Shown here: positions 6,398-53,941 of the stretch, in pieces
How the letters are laid out: every line of letters begins with the position of its first letter
Numbering within the stretch: the stretch's first letter is position 1
NCBI GenBank assembly: GCA_964016885.1
Contig: OZ024745.1
Location: 27,032,001 to 27,096,000, forward strand
Direction: 5' to 3'
DNA length: 64,000 nucleotides
Source of the DNA: Eledone cirrhosa
Taxonomy: Eukaryota
The notes under the pieces: generated by a model
Database searches by the model: none
The model's input: only the letters and a program-made list of their open reading frames with translations
What the model was told of the DNA's origin: nothing
Translations under genes and position numbers: made by a program

Positions 6398-6586
6398 TTG
6401 TGGATTGGCAGTATCGGTAGAGGGTCGGACGCCATGCTTTCCAGCATAGTTACGTCCCTTTACGATCTGAGTTCAAATCCCGCCGAGGTTGACTTTGCCT
6501 TTCATCCTTACGGGGTCGATAAAATAAAGTACCAGTAATGCACTGGGTAATTACTGGCCTAGTGCCTAAAGTAGAAACAAACATTA
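6398..6586 (+). mobile_element. SINE family 1 copy flanked by a 27-bp direct repeat
   Basis: GAGTTCAAATCCCGCCGAGGTTGACTTTGCCTTTCATCCTTACGGGGTCGATAAAATAAAGTACCAG core; ATCAACAACATTACAGTCATAACAGAT at 6363-6389 and 6592-6618. Confidence 0.85.
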
Positions 6587-6849: not shown

Positions 6850-7333
6850 TCATAAGTCTGGAATCCTTTCTAGGAAATCTTGCTCTTTACTGTTAACGAG
6901 GGACTGGAACGGCATCTTGGACACAAGCTAGGATTGTACAGGAATAGCAAAAGTTTCAAGAACCTAATCAAGCAGTTCTAACTGTCTAACAGGTGCAGAC
7001 TAGATTTCTCGAATGCGCCAGCATAGACCTGGCCCAATCACATAGAGTGCTCCAGATCGTATATAGATAAGGTTTTCTTTAGGTTAGTAGATAGGAATAG
7101 CATAGGGCGTCCACAATTCCAAACGGTTGCCTATTCAGACCAGAAATTTGTGATCTGCATGGTTGATCAAGATAAAACACTTAATCAGTGACCTGGTCAC
7201 TAGAAGTTTAACTCGTTAAGTCTACAGCGACCGAATCAGCACTTTAGTTAAGCGACAGTTGGCGGGGTCAGTTATAAACAACAGGTGGAAGGATCCTCTC
7301 AAATGTTTCTGTCACTGTGACCAATAAAGAAAT
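6850..7333 (+). pseudogene. Old, internally deleted Tx1-clade relic (APE endonuclease fragment fused to a family-type 3' terminus)
   Basis: Decayed frames read LESFLG, RDWNGILD, SRSYIDKVF, VAYSDQKFVICMVD and YSDRISTLVKRQLAGSVINNRW, colinear with ORF2 at 40801-44238; ends CTGTGACCAATAAAGAAAT like the family 3' end. Confidence 0.75.
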
Positions 7334-7337
7334 TATT

Positions 7338-8110
7338 GTGGCGGTGGATTGGAAGTATTAGTAGAGCGTTGGACAATATGTTTTGCAGCATAGAGTTACG
7401 GTCCTTTACGCCGAGTTAGTTTTACCTTTCGACCTTCCCCTCCAAAATTGCTGGCCTTGTGCCTATATCAGAAACCATTATTGTTGTTGTTGTTTCATAA
7501 AGTAGCTAGATGGAAGAATTAGTAGCGTGTCGGTGAGAATGTCTTGCGGTATTTGTTCTGGTTCCTTAAGTTCTGTATTCAAATTCCGCTGAAGTCAACT
7601 TTGCTTTTCATCTTTCCGGGCTCCATGAAATAATTGTTTCTTCTTTTGGCACAAGGCCACCAATTATACCAGTGCATTACTGGTACTTTAGTTTATCGAC
7701 CCCGTAAGGATGAAAGACAATGTTTACCATCATTACGGGGTCGATAAAATAAAGAACCAGTAATGCACTGGGATAATTGCTGGCCTTGTGCCTAAAGTAG
7801 AAACAATTATTTCATGGAGCCCGGAAAGATGAAAAGCAAAGTTGACTTAATGAAATAATTGTTTCTACTTTAGGCACAAGGCCAGCAATTACCCAGTACA
7901 TTACTGGTACTTTATTTTATCGACCCCGTAAGGATGAAAGGCAAAGTTAACCTCGGCGGGATTTGAACTCAGAATGGAAAGGGGCGTAACTATGCTAGAA
8001 AGCATGGCGTCCAACCCTCTACCGATACTGCCAATTCACTACCAGTCAAGTACTGAGGTCGGTTTAAGTGACTTTCCCTGCCCTCAAAATGGCTGGCCTT
8101 GCACCTAAGT
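7338..8110. mobile_element. Cluster of SINE family 1 fragments in both orientations, including a local inverted duplication
   Basis: Core and tail motifs on both strands; 7592-7665 is approximately the reverse complement of 7774-7848. Confidence 0.75.
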
Positions 8111-10645: not shown

Positions 10646-10866
10646 AGGGTGGTGGATTGACAGTATCGGTACAGCGTCGGACACCATGCTTCGCGGCATA
10701 GAGTTACGGCTCTTTATGTTCTGAGTTCAATTCCTGCCGAGGTTAGCTATGCCTTTATTCCTTATAGTTTCGAAGAATAAAGCACCAGTAATGCACTGGG
10801 GTCGATGTAATAGACTTTCACCTCCTCCAAAATGTCTGGCCTTGTACCTAACGTAGAAACAATTAT
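10646..10866 (+). mobile_element. SINE family 1 copy
   Basis: Full head, core and tail, ending in (ATT)n. Confidence 0.85.
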
Positions 10867-18144: not shown

Positions 18145-18548
18145 AGGGCGGTTGATTGGCAGAATCGGTAAAGCATCTGACAAAATGCTTTGCGGTATAT
18201 TGTTACTGCGCTTTACGTTCTAAATTTAAATCCAGCCGAGGTTAGCTTTACCTTTCATACCTTACAGACTTGATATAATAAAGTACAGGTAACGAACTGG
18301 AGTCGATTTAATCGACATTCCCCTGCCCATAAAATTGTTGGCATTGTGCTAAAACCAGAAACCATTATATATGGTGGCTTGGCAGTATCGGTAGAGAGTC
18401 GGACACCATGCTTTGAAGCATAGAGTTACGTCCCTTTATGATCTGAGTTCAAATCCCGCCGAGGTTAACTTTGCCGTTCATCCTTACGGGGTCGATAAAA
18501 TAAAGTACCAGTAATGTACTGGCCTTGTGCCTAAAATAGAAACAATTA
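18145..18548 (+). mobile_element. Two tandem SINE family 1 copies
   Basis: Head, core and tail at 18145-18368 and again at 18372-18548. Confidence 0.85.
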
Positions 18549-20610: not shown

Positions 20611-21474
20611 ATTTCTTTATTAGCCACAAGGGCACAAAAGAAGGGGACAAACACAAATGGGGAGTTTACATACAGGTATATGAAAATAAAACTATTAATA
20701 AAATAACAAATAACAATTGAAATCCCCAATAGGGGGGGGGGGGGGCGTTACACAGGGGTTGTACACACCCCGAAAAAATGTACAACCCTCATCTCCAGGA
20801 GCACCAAGAGTGAGTACTCCCTTCCTCTCTTCCTCTTTTTCCTCAACCTACAGGCTTATATAGAGAGAAGGCCCAACTACTCGGGCCATCTTTGCCACAT
20901 TCACCCACCTTTTATAAAATTTGCTGGGGTACAGCACCTCTCTCTCCATCCTGATTCTTCTTCCAAAATGATATTTGAAAAAACGAATCAATTGTTCGCC
21001 GGAGAGAAAGGTGTCTGACCTCAGCCCTTTTAACCTCGTCCACCATATAACATCTTTCACCATAGCCATAACACATAGGAAAACCGCCTCTCCATCGTTT
21101 TTGAAGGAGGGTGGCGGTTTGATCATGACAATGGACTCGGTGGTCAACTGGATTGGTCCCAACCGCGACAAAAGTCGTTCTACATAGCCCCACAGGTCGG
21201 TAACGCCCGGGTAGTGTACAAATGCGTGCGCGACGGTTTCCTCGTCGCACACGCATCTCGGACAGATCTTTTTCGAAGGGTCCCTGCCCGGGCGCCCGTG
21301 TCTGTAGAGCTTGTCTCGAACTGGTAGAGCTCCTCGGTAGCACTGCCAGGCCAGGGACTTTTGGAAGTTGTCCATTGATCCCGGGCGGAAGGTCCAACCG
21401 AACAGACTGGCCAATTCGTCCTCCTCTACGCCTAGAGTTTCTCCGAGCGTGTCGTCGCACTTGCTGCGGACCAA
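20611..21474 (-). mobile_element. Tx1-clade LINE, subfamily A, 5'-truncated (ORF2 C-terminus plus 3'UTR), in (GATA)n
   Basis: ORF 20848-21474 matches the ORF2 C-terminal zinc-finger region; GATA repeats on both sides. Confidence 0.93.
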
Positions 21475-21483
21475 GATAGATAT

Positions 21484-21500
21484 ATTTCTTTATTTGCCAC
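21484..21500 (-). mobile_element. 17-nt extreme 5'-truncated Tx1 insertion (3' terminus only)
   Basis: ATTTCTTTATTTGCCAC, identical to the end of the copy at 48274, between GATA units. Confidence 0.7.
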
Positions 21501-21515
21501 GAGATAGATAGATAA

Positions 21516-22085
21516 GTTTCTTTTATTTGCCACTAGGGCATCAAAAGTGGGACAAGTACAAAGGGGGGAGTTTACACAAAAAGGCGTCCTCAATAAGGAG
21601 GAGGCAATAACAAAATATAAAAATAAAATAAGATATAACAAAAATAAAATTTTTAACAAAATCCTCAATAGAGAGGAGGCGCCTTGGGGGGTCGCACACA
21701 CCCCCGAAAAAAGTGTGCAACCCTTTTCCTCAGGAGCACAGAGAGGGGGTGCTCCCTCGTTCCTTCCTCTTTTCCACCTACAGGCTTATGTAAAGAGAAG
21801 GCCCATTCACACGGGCCATTCTCGCCACTTTCACCCACCTTTCATAAAAACGACTGGGGTGCAGCACCTCTCTCTCCATCCTGATCCTTCTTCCGAAATG
21901 ATATCGGAAGAAACGGACCAGTTGTTGGCCAGAGAGAAAGGTGCCTGACCTCAGTCCTTTCAGACGCGTCCACCATACAACCTCTTTCGCCATGGCTATT
22001 ACGCACAGAAACACCGCCTCTGCTTCATCTTTGAAGGGGGGAGGCGGCTTGATCATTACAATAGACTCGGTGGTCAACCGGATCG
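21516..22085 (-). mobile_element. Tx1-clade LINE, subfamily B, 5'-truncated
   Basis: 3'UTR and ORF2 end nearly identical to 40538-41108; GATA on both sides. Confidence 0.93.
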
Positions 22086-22123: not shown

Positions 22124-22607
22124 ATTTCTTTATTAGCCACAGGGGCACAAAAGAAGGGGACAAATACAAAGGGGGAAGTTTACATACAATAAAAACGTGT
22201 AAAATGTTATCACAGATGGAATTTAAAAGTTAGTCGATTTTCCCCAATAGAGGGAGACAGTTTATATGGGTAACACATACCCCCGAAAAAATGTGCAACC
22301 CTCATCTCCAGGAGTACGAAGAGCTTGTACTCCTTTCCTCTCCTCCTCCTTTTCCTCAATCTACAGGCTGATATAGAGAGAAGGCCCATTCACTCGGGCC
22401 ATTCTCGCCACTTTCACCCACCTTTCATAAAACTTGCTGCGGTACAGCACCTCTCTCTCCATCCTGATTCTTCTTCCAAAGTGGTATTTGAAAAAAAGAA
22501 TCAGTTGTTGGCCGGAGAGAAAGGTGTCTGACCTCAGCCCTTTCAACCTTGTCCACCATACAACCTCTTTCGCCATAGCTATCACACAAAGGAAAACCGC
22601 CTCTCCT
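22124..22607 (-). mobile_element. Tx1-clade LINE, subfamily C, 5'-truncated
   Basis: Nearly identical to 52014-52499; followed by (GATA)n 22608-22722. Confidence 0.93.
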
Positions 22608-23457: not shown

Positions 23458-23834
23458 TATTAAATAATGTAATTAAATCCTGGTTATTTTATTCATTTTA
23501 TATATGCTCTGCAATGTTATCTAACTACTGTGACTGGAAATTTATTTACTAATTGGATTAAACTCTGAACTGTCTTTTACCTATCTTACTGTGTGTAAAA
23601 CAACCCCGCAGTGATATTCCCCACTATTGGGGATTTCGATTGTTTATTTATAATTGTTAAATTTATTCATACGCTTCCATATATAACCCCCGCCTTCCCA
23701 TGACTTGTAACGTCCCATTTCGTGTGTGTCCTTGTGGCAAATAAAGAAATGTATCTATCTTACTGTGGACTATAAAATCACATTTGAGCTTTGAATTATT
23801 CTTTGCCATATATGATTGTATTATTTTATTAACC

Positions 23835-40514: not shown

Positions 40515-40800
40515 TAGACAGATAGACAGATAGATATGTTTCTTTTATTTGCCACTAGGGCATCAAAAGTGGGACAAGTACAAAGGGGGGAGTTTACACA
40601 AAAAGGCGTCCTCAATAAGGAGGAGGCAATAACAAAATATAAAAATAAAATAAAATATAACAAAAAATAAAATTTTTAACAAAATCCTCAATAGAGAGGA
40701 GGCGCCTTGGGGGTCGCACACACCCCCCGAAAAAAGTGTGCAACCCTTCTCCTCAGGAGCACAGAGAAGGGGTGCTCCCTTGGTCTTTCATCTTCCTCAC

Positions 40801-43800
40801 CTATAGTCTGATGTAGAGTGAAGGCCCATTCACACGGGCCATTCTCGCCACTTTCACCCATCTTTCATAGAAACGGCTGGGGTGCAGCACCTCTCTCTCC
40901 ATCCTGATCCTTCTTCCGAAATGATATCGGAAGAAACGGACCAGTTGTTGGCCAGAGAGAAAGGTGCCTGACCTCAGTCCTTTCAGACGCGTCCACCATA
41001 CAACCTCTTTCGCCATGGCTATTACGCACAGAAACACCGCCTCTGCTTCATCTTTGAAGGGGGGAGGCGGCTTGATCATTACAATAGACTCGGTGGTCAA
41101 CCGGATCGGTCCCACCCTTGACAGCAGTTGTTCGACATAGCCCCACAGATCGGCTACGCCCGAGCAGTGTACCAATGCGTGTGCAACGGTTTCCTCGTCG
41201 CACACGCATCTGGGACAGATCTTTTTGGCGGGGTCCCTACCCGGGCGCCCGTGTCTGTAGAGCCTTTCTCGAACGGGTAAACCCCCTCGGTAGCACTGCC
41301 AGGCCAGGGACTTCTGGAAGTTGTCCATAGGTCCCGGGCTGAATGTCCTACCGAACAGGCTGGCCAGTTCGTCCTCCTCCATGTCTAGGGCTTCTCCGAG
41401 GGCGTCGTCGCACCTGCTGCGTACCAGCCCTCTATAGAATGTTGCGGTGGAGTCTCCACTGATAACCGGATCCGCCTGCCAGAGGGCGGTGAGCGCCTGG
41501 GCACACTCAGTGTACCAGGCGCCCAGTTTTCTCGGTCTTTGCTTGACCCAGGATTGCAGCTCGGTGAGTGAGACGAGTCTGGGAAAGGTTCGTCTCACAA
41601 ACGAGGCCCACACCGGTTGTCCGGTGAGGAATACGTAGAGGTGCCGTAGCTTTAATGCGTGTTTACGCATCATTAGCCACGGCATCCCCAGCCCTCCTTT
41701 CGAAGGGTGTTGACAGCAGATGGATCTCCTCACCATAGGAGCCCGCCTCTTCCAAAGGAATTGGAAGAGCGCGCGCTCCATCTTGGTGAGGGTTTCCCTT
41801 GGGCAGGGCACTACGGTCAGGCGGTAGTAGATGACGGACGCTATGTAGGTGTTCGCCACCTCCGCCCGACCTTTCAGGGATAGTTTGCAACTGGCCCACT
41901 TCTGGGTCAGTGCAAACACCCTGTTCGTAACCTCCGCCCAGTTTTTCTCCACCTGGAGGTCCGGTCCGAACCAGACCCCGAGCAACTTCACCGGGCCCTC
42001 CGTCCAGCGTCCGACGACGCCATCGGAGGGCATCGGTCTGCCCCTCCACGTGCCGAGTTGCAAACCGATCGACTTGTCCCGGTTCAGCTTAGCCCCTGTG
42101 AACTTTTCGTACTCCTCCAGTAAGGTGCCGACCGCCTCGATTTCGGAGGCCGTCGACACCATTACTGTCACGTCATCGGCGTAGGCCGACACCGCTTTCC
42201 GCAATCCCGGTTCCAAAGGGATGCCCTGCAACAACTCCAACTTCCACAGTAGTGGCTCGAGAGTCAACACATACAGAAGGGAGGAGAGAGGGCACCCTTG
42301 TCGGATGGACCGCGCGATTTTGAACGGCTCCGAGAGGTAGCCGTTCACCTTGACCCTAGAGCAGATGCCGCTGCTGTGCATAGCAGTGATCCAGCCCCTG
42401 AAAACGGGTCCGAAGCCTGCCGCCGCTAGCACCGCATCCAGGTAACCATGGTCGACCCTATCGAACGCCTTAGATTGATCCAAGTTGATCAGAGCCCCAC
42501 CAAAGCCGGGTTCGTTCCCAACCCTCTCTATGATGTATTGCATGAGGTGGAGGTTGTCATGGATGGACCTGGACGGGATAGCGCATGTCTGCGCATCTCC
42601 CACCAGGTTGCCCACGACAAGCGCCAACCTCTTTGCTAGCACCTTGGCCAAAATCTGTAACTCTGTATTTAGCAGAGTTATGGGCCTGAAGTTACTTATT
42701 TCGTCCCCCTTGTTCTCGTCCTTCCTCACTAGCGTGACTACGCCCTTGGTCACAGTACAGGGAATTCTCCCGTTCTGTTGCCAGTTGCAGTAGACCGCCT
42801 CGAGGAGATCGGGGAACAAGTCCGGCATAGCTAGATATAATTCGTAAGGAAGACCATCGAGACCCGGGGATTTGCGTTTGACGCATTGGCTCAGCACGTC
42901 CTCTATGTCAGCGGCCGAAATCGGCTCCTCGCAGGACTTCGCCTCCCTGTCCGAGAGGCGCGGCAGGCCGTCGAGGTATGGACCGAAGTCCACGTTCCCA
43001 ACCGGCTCCCCGCCCCTCCCGAACAGTCGGGCAAAGTGCCTTTGAAAGGCCTTACACATCTGCCTAGGCTCAAGAATCGCCCGTCCATCCAGATCTCGCA
43101 AAGACCGGATGGTGGATTTAGTTCCACTGTTGGCCTCTGTCACGCGGGCCCAGCTAACAGCTTTGGTCCCCTCGTTCCCTAGAGCACGTATTTTACTTCG
43201 GACAACGCAGCCTTCGTGCTTCGCGTCGAAAAACTGGCTCAAAGCCGTTCTCGACGCTAGCACTCTGGCCACGTCGCCGCTTCTAATTGCCTCTTCTACT
43301 CTATCTATTAGCTCCCTTTCCTTCCTATTCCTATCCGCAGCTAGAACCTTACTAAATTCTATCGAGACTACTCTAATCTCTCTCGTTAGAGATACCCACC
43401 ACCTGCTGTTGACGATCGCTCCAGTCAACCGTTCCTTAACTAACGTACTAATCCGATTCCTGTAGGCTCTACTTGCCGGCAAGGACAAGTTGAGCTTCCA
43501 GTAACCGGGGCCCTGTCTATGAGTTCTGTCAAGGTTGACCGTGCAGGTCACTAATTTGTGGTCTGAATAGCCAACCATGCGCATTTTTGGACAACTTAAA
43601 AAGTCCTTATCCTTAATTCTAACTAAGAACCTATCTAGGTACGACCTAGATGATCCGCTACGATTTGCCCAAGTCCAGGTTGGCGCAGTCGGAAAATCTA
43701 GTCGATATCTATCGGCCAGGTCAAATCGACCGATTAACCCTTTGAGGCTATTACACCCCTCTCTATCGGGGCAGGCCCCTACGTAGTCCCAGCGTGCATC

Positions 43801-44238
43801 TAGGATACCATTCCAGTCCCCCACTAATAGCAAGGAGCGGGACGTCCCTAGAAAAGTCTCCAGACGATGGAAGAAGTCCGGCCGCATTGACCCGAAAGGG
43901 CCGTAGGCGGCTACCAACCTAAACGCTCCGCCTTTACCACTGCCAAGGTCCAGAACCACTAGTCGACCCTCCGGGTCCAAATGTACCATCTGTGTTGCGA
44001 GACCCAGATGTTTTTGCAGCAGAACGACAACTCCACCCCCACCTCCGGGCTGACAGAGAGATGCGTGCATCTCAAAGTCATCAAAGGTGGGGGACAGCTG
44101 TCGCACGTTGCTGATCCGGGCCTCGCAAATAACCATCACATCTATACGTTGTGACCTGAGGTCATTTAGAAGCATTGCTTGCTTCCAAGTTGAGCCCAGG
44201 CCACGCGCATTTAAACAGCCTACTCTTAGCATAGCCAT
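40801..44238 (-). CDS. ORF2p: APE endonuclease, reverse transcriptase and C-terminal CCHC zinc finger (1145 aa, intact)
   Basis: LNARGL, GDWN, YLDRFL, SDHK; KSPGLDG, FRPITLLN, LDQSKAFDRV, RQGCPLS, YADDV; CPRC...ETVAHALVHC. First ATG at 44238. Confidence 0.96.
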   Translation of the reverse strand: MAMLRVGCLNARGLGSTWKQAMLLNDLRSQRIDVMVICEARISNVRQLSPTFDDFEMHASLCQPGGGGGVVVLLQKHLGLATQMVHLDPEGRLVVLDLGSGKGGAFRLVAAYGPFGSMRPDFFHRLETFLGTSRSLLLVGDWNGILDARWDYVGACPDREGCNSLKGLIGRFDLADRYRLDFPTAPTWTWANRSGSSRSYLDRFLVRIKDKDFLSCPKMRMVGYSDHKLVTCTVNLDRTHRQGPGYWKLNLSLPASRAYRNRISTLVKERLTGAIVNSRWWVSLTREIRVVSIEFSKVLAADRNRKERELIDRVEEAIRSGDVARVLASRTALSQFFDAKHEGCVVRSKIRALGNEGTKAVSWARVTEANSGTKSTIRSLRDLDGRAILEPRQMCKAFQRHFARLFGRGGEPVGNVDFGPYLDGLPRLSDREAKSCEEPISAADIEDVLSQCVKRKSPGLDGLPYELYLAMPDLFPDLLEAVYCNWQQNGRIPCTVTKGVVTLVRKDENKGDEISNFRPITLLNTELQILAKVLAKRLALVVGNLVGDAQTCAIPSRSIHDNLHLMQYIIERVGNEPGFGGALINLDQSKAFDRVDHGYLDAVLAAAGFGPVFRGWITAMHSSGICSRVKVNGYLSEPFKIARSIRQGCPLSSLLYVLTLEPLLWKLELLQGIPLEPGLRKAVSAYADDVTVMVSTASEIEAVGTLLEEYEKFTGAKLNRDKSIGLQLGTWRGRPMPSDGVVGRWTEGPVKLLGVWFGPDLQVEKNWAEVTNRVFALTQKWASCKLSLKGRAEVANTYIASVIYYRLTVVPCPRETLTKMERALFQFLWKRRAPMVRRSICCQHPSKGGLGMPWLMMRKHALKLRHLYVFLTGQPVWASFVRRTFPRLVSLTELQSWVKQRPRKLGAWYTECAQALTALWQADPVISGDSTATFYRGLVRSRCDDALGEALDMEEDELASLFGRTFSPGPMDNFQKSLAWQCYRGGLPVRERLYRHGRPGRDPAKKICPRCVCDEETVAHALVHCSGVADLWGYVEQLLSRVGPIRLTTESIVMIKPPPPFKDEAEAVFLCVIAMAKEVVWWTRLKGLRSGTFLSGQQLVRFFRYHFGRRIRMEREVLHPSRFYERWVKVARMARVNGPSLYIRL

Positions 44239-44262
44239 GTTGGTGGTGAAGAGAAAAGGCAC

Positions 44263-45555
44263 TTACCTCTCTGCGTCCCGGGTATCGGGCTGCACAATTT
44301 CCATTAGGGTGGGGGATGGGTTTTTGGGTGGGGTGGTGGTTTGTGGAAGTGTGGGGGCATCAGTGTGTTGTGTGGTTGGGGAGCTTGGAGTTGTGTGGGT
44401 GTTTGGGGAGGGGGTGGGATAGTTTTTTAGGAGGACGCGGTTAATGGGCCCGACGCAGGGGGGCCCCACGTCCTCTTTAAAATTGTTTTTTAAAGTTTTA
44501 TAGGTGTCCTGTGGGGCCTTAATCATTTTGAGGTGGGGGAAATCCCCTGCCTGGGTGAAGTTAGGCCCTTGTGTTTTTATTAGATTGTTGTTGTACACAA
44601 TGTTTAACAGTTTTTTGTTTCTTGTATTTATGTATGTGTATGCATGTTTTTGTTTTTGTGTGGTGTTTTTTGTTTGCTGTTGTTGTGAGCTCTTTTGTGT
44701 TGGTGTCAGTGTTATGTTTTGGGGAGGGTTTTTTTTCATTTGTGTGTCTGAGGTGTGTTTTCTTTTTTTTCTTTTGATTGTGTGGAAGTGCTCCTCCTCG
44801 TCTGACGACGAACTAGGGTCATCTTCCGCGTTGGAGGGGAGGGGTATATTTTCGGGTTGTGTTTGCGGTACGGGTGTTTTGGAAATTGTTTTTGTTTTTG
44901 TGGAGGGGATGGGTTGGACATTGTTTTGTTTTGGTTTGAGCTGTGGTGGTTGTTTTTGTAGTGGTAGTTGTGGTGATTGTGTTGGTTGTGCAGTTGTTGG
45001 TGGTGTAGGCAGGATTGGGGTTTTCTTATTAAGTTGGGGACAGACAGCCCTCAGGTGACCTCTGGTTCCGCAGAGGTAACACGAGGGCCGTCTACCCTCA
45101 ACGGTAATGTTGATGAAGGTTAGATCATCCGGTATGACGCGTTCAGGGATCTGGGCGATCCTTTCGGGCCTCATTTGAACTACAAGTTCGAGGCTCGTTC
45201 CACTGAACGCGTCACCCGATGCCTTTCCCATGGACACCAGCATGTCATCCTCCAGGTCCAGAAAACCTGTCAAAACCCACCATATGTCCATAATCGGCAG
45301 GATGGTGTGGATTTTTATTTGTTGTGTTCTTCTACCCATGTACGTAGGGTAGAAGGTGTATGCGATGGATGTGATTGGTTTGATGGACAGTTTCACTGCT
45401 GTGTCCCTGTCCTTCATGAGAATGGATAGACTCCCGTAGAGTCTATCCTTCTGAATGAAGGTGATGTCCTTCATGACGTCTTTTAAAACCAGCTCTATCT
45501 CGCTCTGTGATGGTTGAGCTGGTTTTTTACTTTTGTTCGAGATTGTCCTAAACAT
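44263..45555 (-). CDS. ORF1p: gag-like nucleic-acid-binding protein with a CCHC zinc knuckle; the N-terminus probably extends to about 45807 across a frameshift
   Basis: CYLCGTRGHLRAVC knuckle, Pro/Gln/Thr-rich tail and KRKKRK basic patch; position directly upstream of ORF2. Confidence 0.88.
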   Translation of the reverse strand: MFRTISNKSKKPAQPSQSEIELVLKDVMKDITFIQKDRLYGSLSILMKDRDTAVKLSIKPITSIAYTFYPTYMGRRTQQIKIHTILPIMDIWWVLTGFLDLEDDMLVSMGKASGDAFSGTSLELVVQMRPERIAQIPERVIPDDLTFINITVEGRRPSCYLCGTRGHLRAVCPQLNKKTPILPTPPTTAQPTQSPQLPLQKQPPQLKPKQNNVQPIPSTKTKTISKTPVPQTQPENIPLPSNAEDDPSSSSDEEEHFHTIKRKKRKHTSDTQMKKNPPQNITLTPTQKSSQQQQTKNTTQKQKHAYTYINTRNKKLLNIVYNNNLIKTQGPNFTQAGDFPHLKMIKAPQDTYKTLKNNFKEDVGPPCVGPINRVLLKNYPTPSPNTHTTPSSPTTQHTDAPTLPQTTTPPKNPSPTLMEIVQPDTRDAER

Positions 45556-46243
45556 GACCGTGTTTAGGAGTCTCTGGCTTTTTAGTTCCGGGGGGGGGAA
45601 TGGATTGTGAATGAACCATTTTCCCCGTACACTATATATTTTTTCGCATCCGCCAGTAGCTCCTTCGCTTTTGTTATATCTACTGGCAGATAGTCGAGGG
45701 TTTTCCTTGTCGTCTCGGCGAAGGAGAAATTTTGTTTGTTTGTGTTGTTGTTGTCGTTGGTGGTGTTGTTGTTATCATTGTTGTTGTTGTTGTCACCGTT
45801 ATTGGTCAGATAGATAGATAGATAGATAGATAGACAGATAGACAGATAGATAGATAGACAGATAGATAGATAGACAGATAGACAGATAGATAGATAGATA
45901 GACAGACAGATAGACAGATAGATAGACAGACAGATAGATAGATAGAGTTGGAAAGACAGACAGACAGACAAATATATACCTATGTATATACATACATACA
46001 CACACATTATATATATGTATATGTGATGTATGTTTCAGTGTACATATACACACAAACACACAAACACACAAACACACACACACACACACACACACATACA
46101 CATACAGTTTACAAATGCATATTAGCATGTTTTACCATAAAGTATGTAGTACGATTGATTGTGTAAATGTGTGAGCGAGTGAGGGGCTGAGCGATGGATG
46201 AGTGTGTGTGTATGTGTACGTATATGAGTGTGTGTATGTGTAC

Positions 46244-48273: not shown

Positions 48274-48533
48274 ATTTCTTTATTTGCCACAGGGGCGCAC
48301 AAGAAAAGGGGACAAAACAAAGACACATGCCGGGGATTTTACATACAGTCGCGTAAAAATATTGAAACAAACAAATTTAACAATCGAAATCCCCAATAGT
48401 GGGGAGGCACCACAAATGGGTTGTTTAATACCCCGTCGATAGAACAACCTTCAACTTCAGGAGCGTATTGTGCAAGTGCTCCTTTCTTCCTTTTGCTATC
48501 TTCTTTAACCTACAGGTTTATATACAGAGAAGG
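48274..48533 (-). mobile_element. Tx1-clade LINE, subfamily D, 3'UTR-only copy
   Basis: Family terminus and last ORF2 codons; homologous to 51675-51941; GATA on both sides. Confidence 0.88.
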
Positions 48534-48553: not shown

Positions 48554-51500
48554 ATTCTTTATTAGCCATAAGGACACAAAAGAAGGGGACAAATACAAAT
48601 GGGGAGTTTACATACAGGTATATGAAAATAAAACTATTAATACAATAACAAATAACAATTGAAATCCCCAATAGGCGGGAGGTGTTACACAGGGGTTGTA
48701 CACACCCCCGAAAAAATGAACAACCCTCATCTCCAGGAGCACCAAGACTGAGTACTCCCTTCCTCTCTTCCTCTTTTTCCTCAACCTACAGGCTTATATT
48801 GAGAGAAGGCCCAGCCACTCGGGCCATCTTTGCCACATTCACCCACCTTTCATAAAATTTGCTGGAGTACAGCACCTCTCTCTCCATCCTGATTCTTCTT
48901 CCAAAATGATATTTGAAAGAACGAATCAGTTGCTCGCCGGAGAGAAAGGTGTCTGACCTCAGCCCTTTTAACCTCGTCCACCATATAACCTCTTTCACCA
49001 TAGCCACAACACATAGGAAAACCGCCTCTCCCTCGTTTTTGAAGGAGGGTGGCGGTTTGATCATGACAATGGACTCGGTGGTCAACTGGATTGGTCCCAC
49101 CCGCGACAATAGTAGTTCTACATAGCCCAACAGGTCGGTAACGCCCGGGCAGTGTACAAATGCGTGTGCGACAGTTTCCTCGTCGCGCACGCATCTCGGA
49201 CAGATCTTTTTCGAAGGGTCCCTACCCGGAGGCCCGTGTCTGTAGAGCTTGTCTCGAACTGGTAGAGCTCCTCGGTAGCATTGCCAGGCCAGGGACTTTT
49301 GGAAGTTGTCCATTGGTCCTGAGTGGAAGGTCCTACCGAACAGACTGGCCAGTTTCTCCGAGCGTGTCGTCGCATTTGCTGCGGACCAGCCCTCTATAGA
49401 ATGTCGAAGTGGATTCTCCACTAATCGCCGGGTCCGTTTGCCAGAGGACTGTGAGCGCCTGAGCACATTCGATGTGCCAGTCGCCCATTTCCTCGGTCTT
49501 TGCTTGACCCAGGACTGCAGCTCGGTCAGCGAGACGAGTCATGGGAAGGCTCGCCTCACGAACGGGGCCCACACCGGTTGTCTGGTGAGGAATATGTGGA
49601 GGTGCCGCCGCCTGAGCGCGTGTTTGCGCATCGTCAGCCACAGCATCCCCAACCCTCCGTTTGAATGGTGTTGGCAGCAGATGGATCTTCTCACCAAAGG
49701 AGCCCGTTTCTTCCAAAGGAATTGGAAGAGCGCGCGCTCCATTTTGGTGAGCGTTTTGGCTGGACAAGGCACGACGGTCAAGCGGTAGTAGATGACGGAC
49801 GCTATAAAAGTGTTCGCCACCTCCGCTCGACCTTTCAAGGATAGTTTGCACTCGGCCCACTTCTGGGTGAGCGCAAACACCTTGGCCGTAATCCTCGTTC
49901 CAGTTCTTCTCCACCTGGAGGTCCGGACCAAACCAGACCCCGAACAGCTTTACCGGTTCTTCCGTCCAGCGTCCGACGACGCCATCGGAAGGCATCGGTT
50001 TGCCTCTCCACGTTCCGAGTTGCAAACCGTTGGATTTGTCCCGGTTTAGCTTCGCTCCTGTGAACCTTTCGTATTCCTCCAGTAAGGTGCCGACCTCCCC
50101 GATTTGCGAAGTGCTCGACACCATTACTGTCACGTCGTCGGCGGAGGCCAACGCCACTTTTCGCAGTCCCGGTTCCAAAGGGATGCCCTGCAATAGCTCC
50201 AACTTCCGCAGTAGTGGCTCGAGAATCAGTACGTACAGAAGGGAGGACAGAGGGCATCCCTGTCGGATGGATCGCATAATATGGAACGGCTCCGAGAGGT
50301 AGCCGTTCAGCTTGACCCTTGAGCAGATGTTGCTGCTGTGCATTGCAACAATCCAGCCCGTGAACACGGGTCCGAAGCCTGCCGCCTCGAGCACCACATC
50401 CAGGTAACGATGGTCAACCCTATCGAAAGCCTTAGACTGATCCAAGTTGATCAGGGCCCCACCGAAGCCGGGTTTACACCCTACCCTCTCTATGATGTAT
50501 CGCATGAGGTGGAGGTTGTCGTGTCTGGACCTGGTCGGGATTGCGCATGTCTGCGCTTCTCCCACCAGGTTTTCGACGACAAGCGCCAACCTTTTTGCCA
50601 ACACCTTGGCTAAAATCTGTAACTCTGTGTTGAGCAGAGTTATGGGCCGGAAGTTGCCTATGTCATCCCCCTTATTCTCGTTCTTCCTGACTAACGTGAT
50701 TACGCCCTTGGTCACAGAACTGGGAATTCTCCCGTTCTGCTGCCAGTTGCAGTAGACCGCTTCCAGGAGACCGGAGAACAAGTCCGGCATTGCTACGTAA
50801 AATTCGTAGGGTAGACCGTCGAGACCTGGAGATTTGCGTTTGCCGCATTTGCTCAGCGCGTCCCCTATCTCAGCGGCCGAAATCAGCCTTTCGCAGAACT
50901 TCGCCTCGCTGTTCGAGAGTCGCGGTAGGCCGTCGAAGTATGGAGCGAAATCCATAGCCCCTCCCGGCGAGCCGCCCTGCCTGAACAGTTGAGAAAAGTG
51001 CCGCTGAAAGGCCGCGCACATTTTCTTCGGCTCACGTATCACGTCTTGGTCCTTCAAAGACCGAATCGTGGACTTGTTGCCACTTTTCGCCTCCGTCACT
51101 CGGGCGCAGCTAACAGTTTTGGCTCCCTCGTTTCCCAAAGCACGTATTTTGCTTCTGACAACGCATCCTTTATGCTTTGCGTCGAAGAACTGGTCCAAGG
51201 CCGTTCTCGTCGCTAGCACGCTGGCTACGTTGCCACTCCTAAGTGCCTCTTCTACTTTATCTACCAGTTCATTTTCGGTCTTATTTCTATCTAACACTAA
51301 TTCTTTACTAAAACCTATTGAGTCTAATCTAACTGCTCTCTTGAGAGAGTGCCACCATCTGTTGTTGACAATGGCCCCCGTCAAGTGCTGCTTAACTAAA
51401 GTGCTAATCCGTCTACTGTAGGCTTTGCATGTCGGCTTCCAGTAGCCGGGTCCCTGTCTATGGGCTTTGTCAAGGTTGACTAAGCAGGTCACTAATTTGT

Positions 51501-51674: not shown

Positions 51675-51941
51675 ATTTCTTTATTAGCCACAAGGGCGCA
51701 ACAAGAAAAGTGGACAATACAAAGACATGCCGGGGATTTTACATACAGTCGTGTAAAAAATATAAAAACAAACAATTTCAACAATCGAAATCCCCAATAG
51801 GGGGAAGGCGCTACATATGGGTTGTTTAATACCCCGTCGATAGAACAACCCTCAACTCCAGGAGCGTGTTGTGCAAGTGCTCCTTTCTTCCTTTTGCTCT
51901 CTTCCTCAACCTACAGGCTTATAAACAGAGAAGGCCCAATC
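51675..51941 (-). mobile_element. Tx1-clade LINE, subfamily D, 3'UTR-only copy
   Basis: As 48274-48533; followed by (GATA)n 51942-52011. Confidence 0.88.
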
Positions 51942-52013: not shown

Positions 52014-53941
52014 ATTTCTTTATTAGCCACAGGGGCACAAAAGAAGGGGACAAATACAAAGGGGGAAGTTTACATACAATAAAAACGTGTAAAATGTTAT
52101 CACAGATGGAATTTAAAAGTTAGTCGATTTTCCCCAATAGAGGGAGACAGTTTATATGGGTAACACATACCCCCGAAAAGAAATGTGCAGCCCTCATCTC
52201 CAGGAGTACGAAGAGTTTGTACTCCTTTCCTCTCCTCCTCCTTTTCCTCAACCTACAGGCTGATATAGAGAGAAGGCCCATTCACTCGGGCCATTCTCGC
52301 CACTTTCACCCACCTTTCATAAAACTTGCTGGGGTACAGCACCTCTCTCTCCATCCTGATTCTTCTTCCAAAGTGGTATTTGAAAAAAAGAATCAGTTGT
52401 TGGCCGGAGAGAAAGGTGTCTGACCTCAGCCCTTTCAACCTTGTCCACCATACAACCTCTTTCGCCATAGCTATCACACAAAGGAAAACCGCCTCTCCTT
52501 CGTTTTTGAAGGAGGGTGGCAGTTTGATCATGACAATGGACTCGGTGGTCAACTGGATTGGTCCCACCCGCGACAATAGTCGTTCTACATAGCCCCACAG
52601 GTCAGTGACGCCCGGGCAGTGTATGAATGCGTGCGCGACGGTTTCTTCGTCTCGCACGCACCTCGGACAGATTTTTTTTGCAGGGTCCCTTCCGGGGCGC
52701 CCATGTCTGTAGAGCTTGTCTCGAACTGGTAGAGCTCCTCGGTAGCATTGCCAGGCCAGGGACTTTTGGAAGTTGTCCATCGGTCCCGGGCGGAAGGTCC
52801 TACCGAACAGACTGGCCAGTTCATCTTCCTCTACGCCTAGAGTTTCACCGAGCGCGTCGTCGCACTTGCTGCGGACCAACCCTCTATAGAATGACGAAGT
52901 GGAGTCTGCACTGCTCGCCGGGTCCGCCTGCCAGAGGGCTGTGAGCGCCTGAGCACATTCGATGTGCCAGTCGCCCATTTTCCTCGGTCTTTGCTTGACC
53001 CAGGACTGCAGCTCGGTCAGCGAGACGAGTCGTGGGAAGGCTCGCCTCACGAACGGGGCCCACACCGGTTGTCAGGTGAGGAATACGTAGAGATGCCGCA
53101 GCCTGAGCGCGTGTTTGCGCATCGTCAACCACGGCATCCCCAGCCCTCCGTTAGAATGGTGTTGGCAGCAGATGGATCTTCTCACCAAAGGAGCCCGCCT
53201 CTTCCAAAGGAATTGGAAGAGCGCGCGCTCCATTTTGGCGAGCGTTTTGGCTGGACAAGGTACGACGGTCAAGCGGTAGTAGATGGCGGACGCTATAAAA
53301 GTGTTCGCCACCTCCGCTCGACCTTTCAAGGATAGTTTGCACTCGGCCCACTTCTGGGTGAGTGCAAACACCTTGGCCGTCACTTCGTTCCAGTTCTTCT
53401 CCACCTGGAGGTCCGGACCAAACCAGACCCCGAGCAGCTTTACCGGTCCTTCCGTCCAGCGTCCGACGACGCCATCGGAAGGCATCGGTCTGCCTCTCCA
53501 CGATCCGATTTGCAAACCGATGGACTTGTCCCGGTTCAGCTTCGCTCCTGTGAGACTTTCGTATTCCTTCAGTAAGGTGCCGACTTCCTCGATTTGCGAG
53601 GCGCTCGACACCATTACTGTCACGTCGTCGGCGTAGGCCGACGCCGCTTTCCGCAGTCCCGGTTCCAGAGGGATGCCCTGCAATAGCTCCAGCTTCCGCA
53701 GTAGTGGCTCGAGAGTCAGTACGTACAGAAGGGAGGAGAGAGGGCATCCCTGTCGAATGGATCGCGTAATATGGAACGGCTCCGAGAGGTAGCCGTTCAC
53801 CTTGACCCTTGAGCAGATGTTGCTGTTGTGCATTGCAGCAATCCAGCGCCTGAACACGGGTCCGAAGCCTGCCGCCTCGAGCACCGCATCCAGGTAACGA
53901 TGGTCAACCCTATTGAAAGCTTTAGACTGATCCAAGTTGAT
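52014..53941 (-). mobile_element. Tx1-clade LINE, subfamily C, 5'-truncated within the RT
   Basis: INLDQSKAF...YADDV...zinc finger in one frame with a single TGA at 53072-53074; the 5' junction shares GAT with the flanking GATA. Confidence 0.94.

Follow-up and report, generated by a model that had tools for sequence, protein, structure and literature searches.

The best-known L1 relatives need only a poly(A) tail, and the locus studied here raises the question of how an L1-like LINE whose copies end in a tandem repeat might select its own RNA as template. Template choice in the L1 clade, and whether the mammalian poly(A)-only mode is derived, are treated as an open question in the accessible parts of two papers (PMC3472496; PMC4176376). 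The window, i.e., the whole stretch of DNA analysed, comprises 64,000 nt of the Eledone cirrhosa assembly GCA_964016885.1 (contig OZ024745.1, positions 27,032,001-27,096,000, forward strand). Our main reading, which we hold at a probability of about 0.5, is that a predicted pseudoknot in the 3'UTR, a short hinge and a terminal hairpin could together form the shape by which ORF2p selects or positions its own RNA for target-primed reverse transcription.

Minus-strand copies of the LINE are stacked within (AGAT)n repeats of the window. A sequence-only reading of this DNA had quoted seven motifs as parts of hairpins, all of which are present where it had placed them; they are the reverse complement of the 3'UTR, directly after the ORF2 stop of the minus-strand copies. 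The four diverged subfamilies that it distinguished are likewise real, with identities of 83% (A-B), 91% (A-C), 80% (A-D) and 74% (B-D) over the last ~450 nt of ORF2. Eight full and one truncated copy of the 3' domain were found in the window with a covariance model from these families. The features are as follows:

about 40538..45807, minus strand: full-length Tx1-like LINE (copy B), with (AGAT)n-type repeats on either flank
44263..45735 (start approximate), minus strand: ORF1 with a CX2CX4HX4C knuckle, no match in Pfam
44239..44266, minus strand: inter-ORF stretch with a donor-like GTAAGT and a pyrimidine tract, predicted to pair, as the 5' side of a long helix, with the beginning of the 3'UTR
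40801..44238, minus strand: ORF2 with APE endonuclease, reverse transcriptase and zf-RVT, TAG stop at 40803-40801
40772..40803, minus strand: first, purine-rich part of the 3'UTR, predicted to supply the 3' strand of the clamp at both ends of ORF2, continuing into the 5' arm of H3
40756..40778, minus strand: H3 hairpin, 7 bp, 9-nt loop, partially supported, alternative to the tip of the clamp
40711..40746, minus strand: H2 hairpin, 11 bp, stem 1 of the predicted pseudoknot, its loop with a U-tract (40730-40735) and a G-run (40723-40728)
40685..40700, minus strand: H1 hairpin, 5 bp, CUAUU-type loop, conserved, inside loop 3 of the predicted pseudoknot
40609..40624, minus strand: second H1-like copy within the AU-rich spacer, only in family B
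40585..40598, minus strand: UGUAAA plus C-run, predicted 3' strand of pseudoknot stem 2, doubling as a UGUA motif
40551..40561, minus strand: terminal hairpin GCC-CUAGU-GGC (loop CUUGU in most families), common to the SINE end
40544..40549, minus strand: AAUAAA, ~6 nt 5' of the target repeat
20623..20826, minus strand: 3' domain, family A copy
21529..21761, minus strand: 3' domain, second family B copy
22136..22339, minus strand: 3' domain, family C copy
48286..48488, minus strand: 3' domain, family D copy
48555..48764, minus strand: 3' domain, second family A copy
51687..51889, minus strand: 3' domain, second family D copy
52026..52231, minus strand: 3' domain, second family C copy
23535..23748, plus strand: 3' domain, older 5'-truncated copy
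7782..7792, plus strand: SINE 3' end GGC-CTTGT-GCC, one of nine in the window, middle pair flipped relative to the LINE

ORF2 of copy B matches PF03372, PF00078 and, below its cut-off, PF13966, and thereby has the layout of the L1/Tx1 clade, i.e., an APE endonuclease, a reverse transcriptase and a C-terminal zinc domain. Its closest solved relative is L1 ORF2p (E=1.5e-46; R2 reaches E=5.6e-19), and the only homologue with a name is an Argonauta hians protein (62% identical). The label Tx1 rests on this layout and on target specificity, the homologue hits including no named Tx1 reference, and we therefore speak of a Tx1-like LINE; active L1-Tx1 families are listed for Octopus vulgaris in the accessible text of PMC13282606. 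Degraded remains of an ORF2 that is more distant, with 46-64% over short segments, lie at 6878-7288 on the plus strand of the window.

A genome search yielded 340 LINE 3' ends, 227 of them with a complete UTR, and the comparison set consists of 31 real exemplar copies of this one genome, 17 of them from multi-copy families. Compared with B, ORF2 DNA identity falls to 65-68% in H1, I1 and K, and the hairpin region to ~50%. The LINE 3' end followed by (CTAT)n gave 5,867 genome matches vs. 0 in a control and a related 3' end followed by (ATT)n gave 21,906, both counts including repeated matches at one place. Among copies retrieved with a protein or DNA query, family B (n=37) ends in CTAT 26 times, in AT five times and otherwise six times, family I ends in ATT in 41 of 42 cases, and all six family J copies sit at one non-microsatellite site. 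Such insertion into one kind of repeat is the behaviour of target-specific Tx1 elements; copies end in the repeat into which they insert, i.e., the tail follows the target, and the LINE copies consequently lack a poly(A) end.

Further variation was seen among these families. The fixed site of family J (3' flanks of L137, L139, L147, L152, L156, L157 and L159) apparently lies within a short tandem repeat, and in a multi-copy variant of B (L024, L025, L144, L323-L325, L330, L365) the AU-rich spacer contains another partial duplication of H1, with (AT)n as a frequent ending. One copy with a (GTGTGC)n-like ending (L282:1517) could mark an additional target, older copies ending in (CAT)n (L225-L254, L305-L320; 46 matches) include the most divergent UTRs, and the ORF2 start of L247 and L248 is just 45% like that of B. 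The chimeric L061 joins a family I2 inter-ORF region to a family H1 3'UTR, which suggests template switching or recombination between families. Among 44 distant LINE loci from metagenomes (21-55% best-segment identity), the domain model reached E=0.053 at best and no significant match.

Three equally covarying hairpins had been proposed for this 3'UTR, and they fare differently. RNAalifold recovers H3, H2 and H1 from a sequence-only alignment of 18 copies, from which families I, K, N, Q and R were left out; in the named structure, 88% of 389 cells are paired, as high as in none of 500 shuffles, and two-sided changes occur in 10 of 22 pairs, a count matched by 47 of the 500. Judged from covariation, support for selection on pairing is firm for H2 (arm-swap p<=1e-5; tree-aware p=0.0005), which shows ~4.7 same-branch double changes (p=0.002, tree-aware null), the tree for these nulls and for the blind scan described below being built partly from the UTR itself (a mild circularity). 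Support for H3 is partial: its covariation reaches p=0.038 by arm-swap and p=0.025 in the tree-aware test, but no double change falls on the same branch, the hairpin is absent in I/K/N/R, and its arm appears to be reused in a long-range helix. H1 is conserved, but its covariation is not significant (arm-swap p=0.14; tree-aware p=0.41), and the compensatory change between D and B that had been put forward is a single event. The idea that mismatches turning into G·U pairs on the element strand reveal selection on the element RNA holds in direction, with G·U vs. A·C at 30:10 family-level cells, but is weak (14:6 distinct states, p=0.12), and H3 of family D has two A·C mismatches on that strand. 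In a larger alignment, which the earlier reading had named as a check, H2 passes the tree-aware test, but when all column pairs were scanned blindly for covariation against a tree null (R-scape-like), no pair fell below E=2 with 31 or 17 rows, for which low power and register shifts between clades are the likely reasons. A model built on those 18 copies, and hence trained without the I/K/N clade, recovers members of this clade at the corresponding position (E 3e-6 to 0.05). The LINE has a conserved 3' stem-loop with compensatory changes, as is characteristic of the stringent type.

Covariation supports the view that the one firmly supported hairpin, H2, is half of a long-range pseudoknot. The purine run of the H2 loop and the run after a downstream A-tract change together across families, and the suspected pairing of this loop with the ACUCCCC-type run was borne out: when partners were swapped among six loop types from multi-copy families, the cognate arrangement (-10.7 kcal/mol vs. 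-8.1 when swapped) ranked first of 720 orderings (p=0.0014), the types having been grouped after the sequences were seen. Adding four single-copy types gave p=0.0026, with the partner site of family N placed by hand; the family R partner picked by alignment fits poorly. With six types, the spacer control gave p=0.8; with all ten, rival partner sites reach p=0.02-0.08. Other partners of the H2 loop were rejected on the six types, including GUCCCC, the second candidate of the earlier reading (p=0.16), as well as the H1 arm (p=0.15) and the terminal arm (p=0.20).

The pairing of stem 2 has at least five sequence solutions, i.e., GGGG/CCCC in families A, B, C, G and J, CGGGG/CCCCG in D and E, UGGGG/CCCCA in P, GUGGGG/CCCCAC in H, AUGGGC/GCCCAU in I and UGUGG/CCACA in K and M, and several family I3 copies carry a mismatch. 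A hairpin loop pairing with an outside strand, with the covariation given above, makes the predicted fold an H-type pseudoknot, with H2 as stem 1, a loop 1 that is U-rich in most families, and a long-range stem 2 whose C-rich strand follows the A-tract ~100-150 nt downstream of the H2 loop. Loop 3 would consist of H1 and a variable AU-rich spacer, which tolerates duplications such as the second H1 of family B. In clade I/K/N, U-tracts flank the G-run of the loop on both sides, opposite the A-tract; in clade I, the G-run is preceded by C-UUU and followed by UUU-C, with G-AAA facing them, an arrangement compatible with one C·G-C and three U·A-U triples, and families K and N show it with U and A throughout. 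The pattern does not fit families A-H, three I2 copies alter one position, and family I3 alters it too. Taken as natural stops of the reverse transcriptase, the 5' truncation points (134 ends, 27 of them in or near the UTR) show no pile-up at the stems.

The second component of the proposed shape, the terminal hairpin, has 3-4 bp and the loop C(U/C)(U/A)GU, lies just before AAUAAA and is present in all 16 multi-copy families scored; family I shows a compensatory change from G-C to A-U (arm-swap p=0.019). This loop recurs, with a flipped middle pair and with similar spacing to GAAA and the tail, at the end of an abundant tRNA-headed SINE, as reflected by 10-13 of 18 matching letters between SINE and LINE ends (p<=0.005) and by the exact hairpin in 67 of 107 SINE ends. 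A 24-letter comparison of these ends was inflated by its anchor and failed for families D and K. A LINE 3' end common to a SINE is a further trait of the stringent type, and two limited pattern searches brought up no other LINE as donor of the SINE tail. The SINE is devoid of H1-H3, of the pseudoknot and of AAUAAA, and it is less target-specific than the LINE: 22 of 23 SINE copies near CTAT-type LINEs lack three ATT units, compared with the near-uniform ATT endings of family I. Within the window, SINE ends lie at 6556-6566, 7453-7463, 7782-7792, 10838-10848 and 18521-18531 and at four sites on the minus strand, and the SINE copies near 7600-7900 stand head to head and tail to tail. At 21486-21503, and at many other loci, the tails of other copies hold very short nested insertions with nothing but the terminal hairpin, AAUAAA and a few bases upstream.

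A further predicted helix clamps both ends of ORF2, as the inter-ORF stretch (44239-44266) pairs with the start of the 3'UTR (40772-40803) at -42 to -63 kcal/mol in eight of eight copies (shuffle p<=0.013). Swapping its arms weakens the pairing from -35 to -29 kcal/mol (p=4e-5; 12 rows, one chimeric copy included). The predicted tip of this clamp is the donor-like GTAAGT paired with the 5' arm of H3, and this double use would explain why the letters of H3 are conserved although the hairpin is not universal. Pairing of the purine run after the stop with a 3' pyrimidine run was dropped in favour of the inter-ORF partner. In many families, a pyrimidine tract precedes the ORF2 stop TAG, like an acceptor.

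From these elements we propose, at the probability given at the outset, the following course of events. ORF2p would grip the terminal hairpin as a minimal handle, a role suggested by the SINE, which has this hairpin and none of H1-H3, and the pseudoknot could compact the UTR, bring stem 1 next to the 3' end and raise the binding of cognate ORF2p, as the pseudoknot-hinge-stem of vertebrate R2 does. The RNA might be cleaved and polyadenylated within the flanking repeat, and read-through repeat units could prime at the nicked target. As the long helix with the inter-ORF region needs its 5' arm too, H3 is probably a secondary fold. Recognition of the 3' domain by ORF2p, which the earlier reading had linked to these hairpins, is plausible; the SINE lacks the pseudoknot, which would therefore not be essential for recognition if these enzymes copy the SINE.

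This possible dispensability is also the reason for which we keep, as the main rival and a minority view of some weight, the explanation that a genuine pseudoknot acts in RNA stability or 3'-end formation, as an ENE-like or nuclease-blocking fold or as a scaffold presenting UGUA and AAUAAA, while ORF2p reads the terminal hairpin alone. That the SINE has only this hairpin and no AAUAAA would agree with it, and so would the accumulation of UGUA motifs 35-70 nt before the end, present in 29 of 31 copies (~5 expected) and at least twofold in 21 of 31 (0.35 expected, the copies being related). CFI binds UGUA upstream of AAUAAA, according to the accessible text of PMC4421977, which gives a second reason for conserving the UGUAAA letters; recognition of poly(A) sites is, however, described in the available sources as based on protein and RNA contacts, for which stem covariation is not needed. 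The U-tracts facing the A-tract in clade I/K/N are reminiscent of a stabilizing triple helix, but this pattern is confined to one clade, the A-rich strand is internal rather than a poly(A) tail, and Rfam contains no ENE match. An ENE proper, in which two local stems enclose a U-rich internal loop, was rejected as a candidate for the last two of these reasons and because the upper helix is long-range in this fold. Unlikely, in our view, is that the domain acts as an RNA switch for ORF1/ORF2 output, in which H3 competes with the long helix over the splice-donor-like site before ORF2 and H2 and the pseudoknot set the balance. The covarying clamp would suit such a switch, as would the donor-tip duplex, which is strong (-13 to -15) in D, G, I1, I2 and K, with their weak or missing H3, and weak (-4 to -7) in B, C and H2b, with their intact one. 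Family J is intermediate (-10.7), though, a search for ORF2-less retrocopies in the families covered by one pattern found none (two matches vs. two in the control, both GA repeats), and a switch accounts for H3 but neither for H2 nor for stem 2, which do not overlap the clamp.

Two further explanations concern the nature of the hairpins themselves. They could be inherited palindromes of G/C runs without selection for pairing, as the negative blind scan and the lack of significance for H1 might suggest; the folding of single copies does not exceed that of shuffles (seven of seven folds at z -0.6 to -1.9), and stem variants common to two to five copies break pairs as often (10 of 14) as singletons do (61 of 90), i.e., recent variants appear unfiltered. 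We nevertheless consider this improbable, as H2 and stem 2 keep their pairing via independent two-sided changes at ~50% UTR identity. Self-cleavage, which had been suggested for this domain, would make it a ribozyme that generates the RNA 3' end; the domain is predicted to be pseudoknotted, and ribozymes do occur in non-LTR elements, though at their 5' ends, according to the accessible text of PMC8501958. This can hardly apply here, given that even at lax thresholds Rfam yielded no ribozyme match (HDV-like, hammerhead and twister cores), that only 5 of 113 alignment columns are invariant, and that copies retain all sequence up to AAUAAA and the repeat, so that an internal cut would destroy the template.

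Returning to the recognition of a pseudoknot and terminal hairpin by ORF2p, the comparison with known systems suggests a structured, probably stringent 3' end that is new mainly in being pseudoknotted and in belonging to an animal L1-clade element. No paper among the matches listed describes a pseudoknot in a Tx1 or L1-clade 3'UTR, with most subscription papers and Repbase outside that coverage, and the accessible parts of PMC4758252, PMC7265360 and PMC8501958 contain no description of this domain. A structured 3' end had been called unusual for the L1 group, which holds insofar as it is uncommon in the L1 clade, but there is a precedent in a monocot L1: the available text of the respective papers describes terminal stem-loops common to a LINE and a SINE for L2 (PMC4176376), CR1 (PMC4824008) and one monocot L1 lineage (PMC3472496). 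The latter, LINE1-1_ZM with ZmSINE2/3, likewise belongs to the L1 clade and has, besides its SINE partner, a 3' hairpin that is conserved and shows compensatory changes, but it is a plant element with one hairpin in ~45-50 nt and no pseudoknot in the accessible description (PMC3472496). ZfL2-1, ZfL2-2 and UnaL2 resemble the present LINE in that a small terminal stem-loop, whose loop is conserved, directly precedes a tandem-repeat end and is common to a SINE; they are of the L2 clade, their binding is demonstrated, and the accessible text describes no upstream pseudoknot (PMC4176376), whereas binding is here a candidate property read from sequence. Kibi, with (TC)n, and Koshi, with (TTC)n, show the same Tx1-type preference for simple repeats, but the present families insert into (CTAT)n, (AT)n and (ATT)n and at one non-microsatellite site, and no 3' RNA structure is described for them in the parts consulted (PMC4494074).

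Transposon ENEs, as far as the accessible text of PMC7583470 describes them, capture poly(A) or a terminal A-tract, unlike the internal A-tract found here. Telomerase RNAs have an H-type pseudoknot with U·A-U triples (PMC7583470, accessible parts); in the predicted pseudoknot of the LINE, the U-rich loop could occupy the major groove of U-A pairs in a similar way, for clade I/K/N only. It shows no sequence homology to the domain (Rfam negative), and the triple pattern is not in all families. A bulged U between A-tract and helix would make the likeness to human telomerase RNA closer. That an animal L1-clade element selects its template by a pseudoknot similar to that of telomerase, which is docked beside a terminal hairpin and in one clade has U·A-U and C·G-C triples, is a tentative idea, more doubtful than our main reading. 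If true, it would mean convergence with the pseudoknot-hinge-stem of R2, and the element would still display the stringent state that was relaxed when L1 recognition came to need poly(A) only. Young copies with an open ORF2 are numerous in this lineage, which also uses several target repeats and shows natural compensatory variants of a small RNA domain, so that stem-swap and family-swap designs can be taken straight from real sequences.

The nearest functional parallel is provided by the A-clade R2 proteins of birds and turtles, which bind a pseudoknot-hinge-stem in the 3'UTR and whose activity is rescued by compensatory mutants, according to the accessible parts of PMC12180492. In both systems, the predicted or known 3' end of a site-specific non-LTR RNA comprises a pseudoknot, a linker and a terminal stem, a shape that persists across divergent sequences (PMC12180492, same parts). 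R2, in contrast, has an RLE nuclease and N-terminal zinc fingers touching the pseudoknot, as described there, whereas the LINE studied here is APE-type, with two ORFs, a pseudoknot loop of 90-150 nt, a hinge of 25-50 nt and AAUAAA. The likeness is thus one of possible working principle and implies no homology, the ORF2 product being of APE type and not an RLE-type R2 protein with ZnF3, and it would extend the recognition of 3'UTR pseudoknots from R2 to an APE-type LINE.
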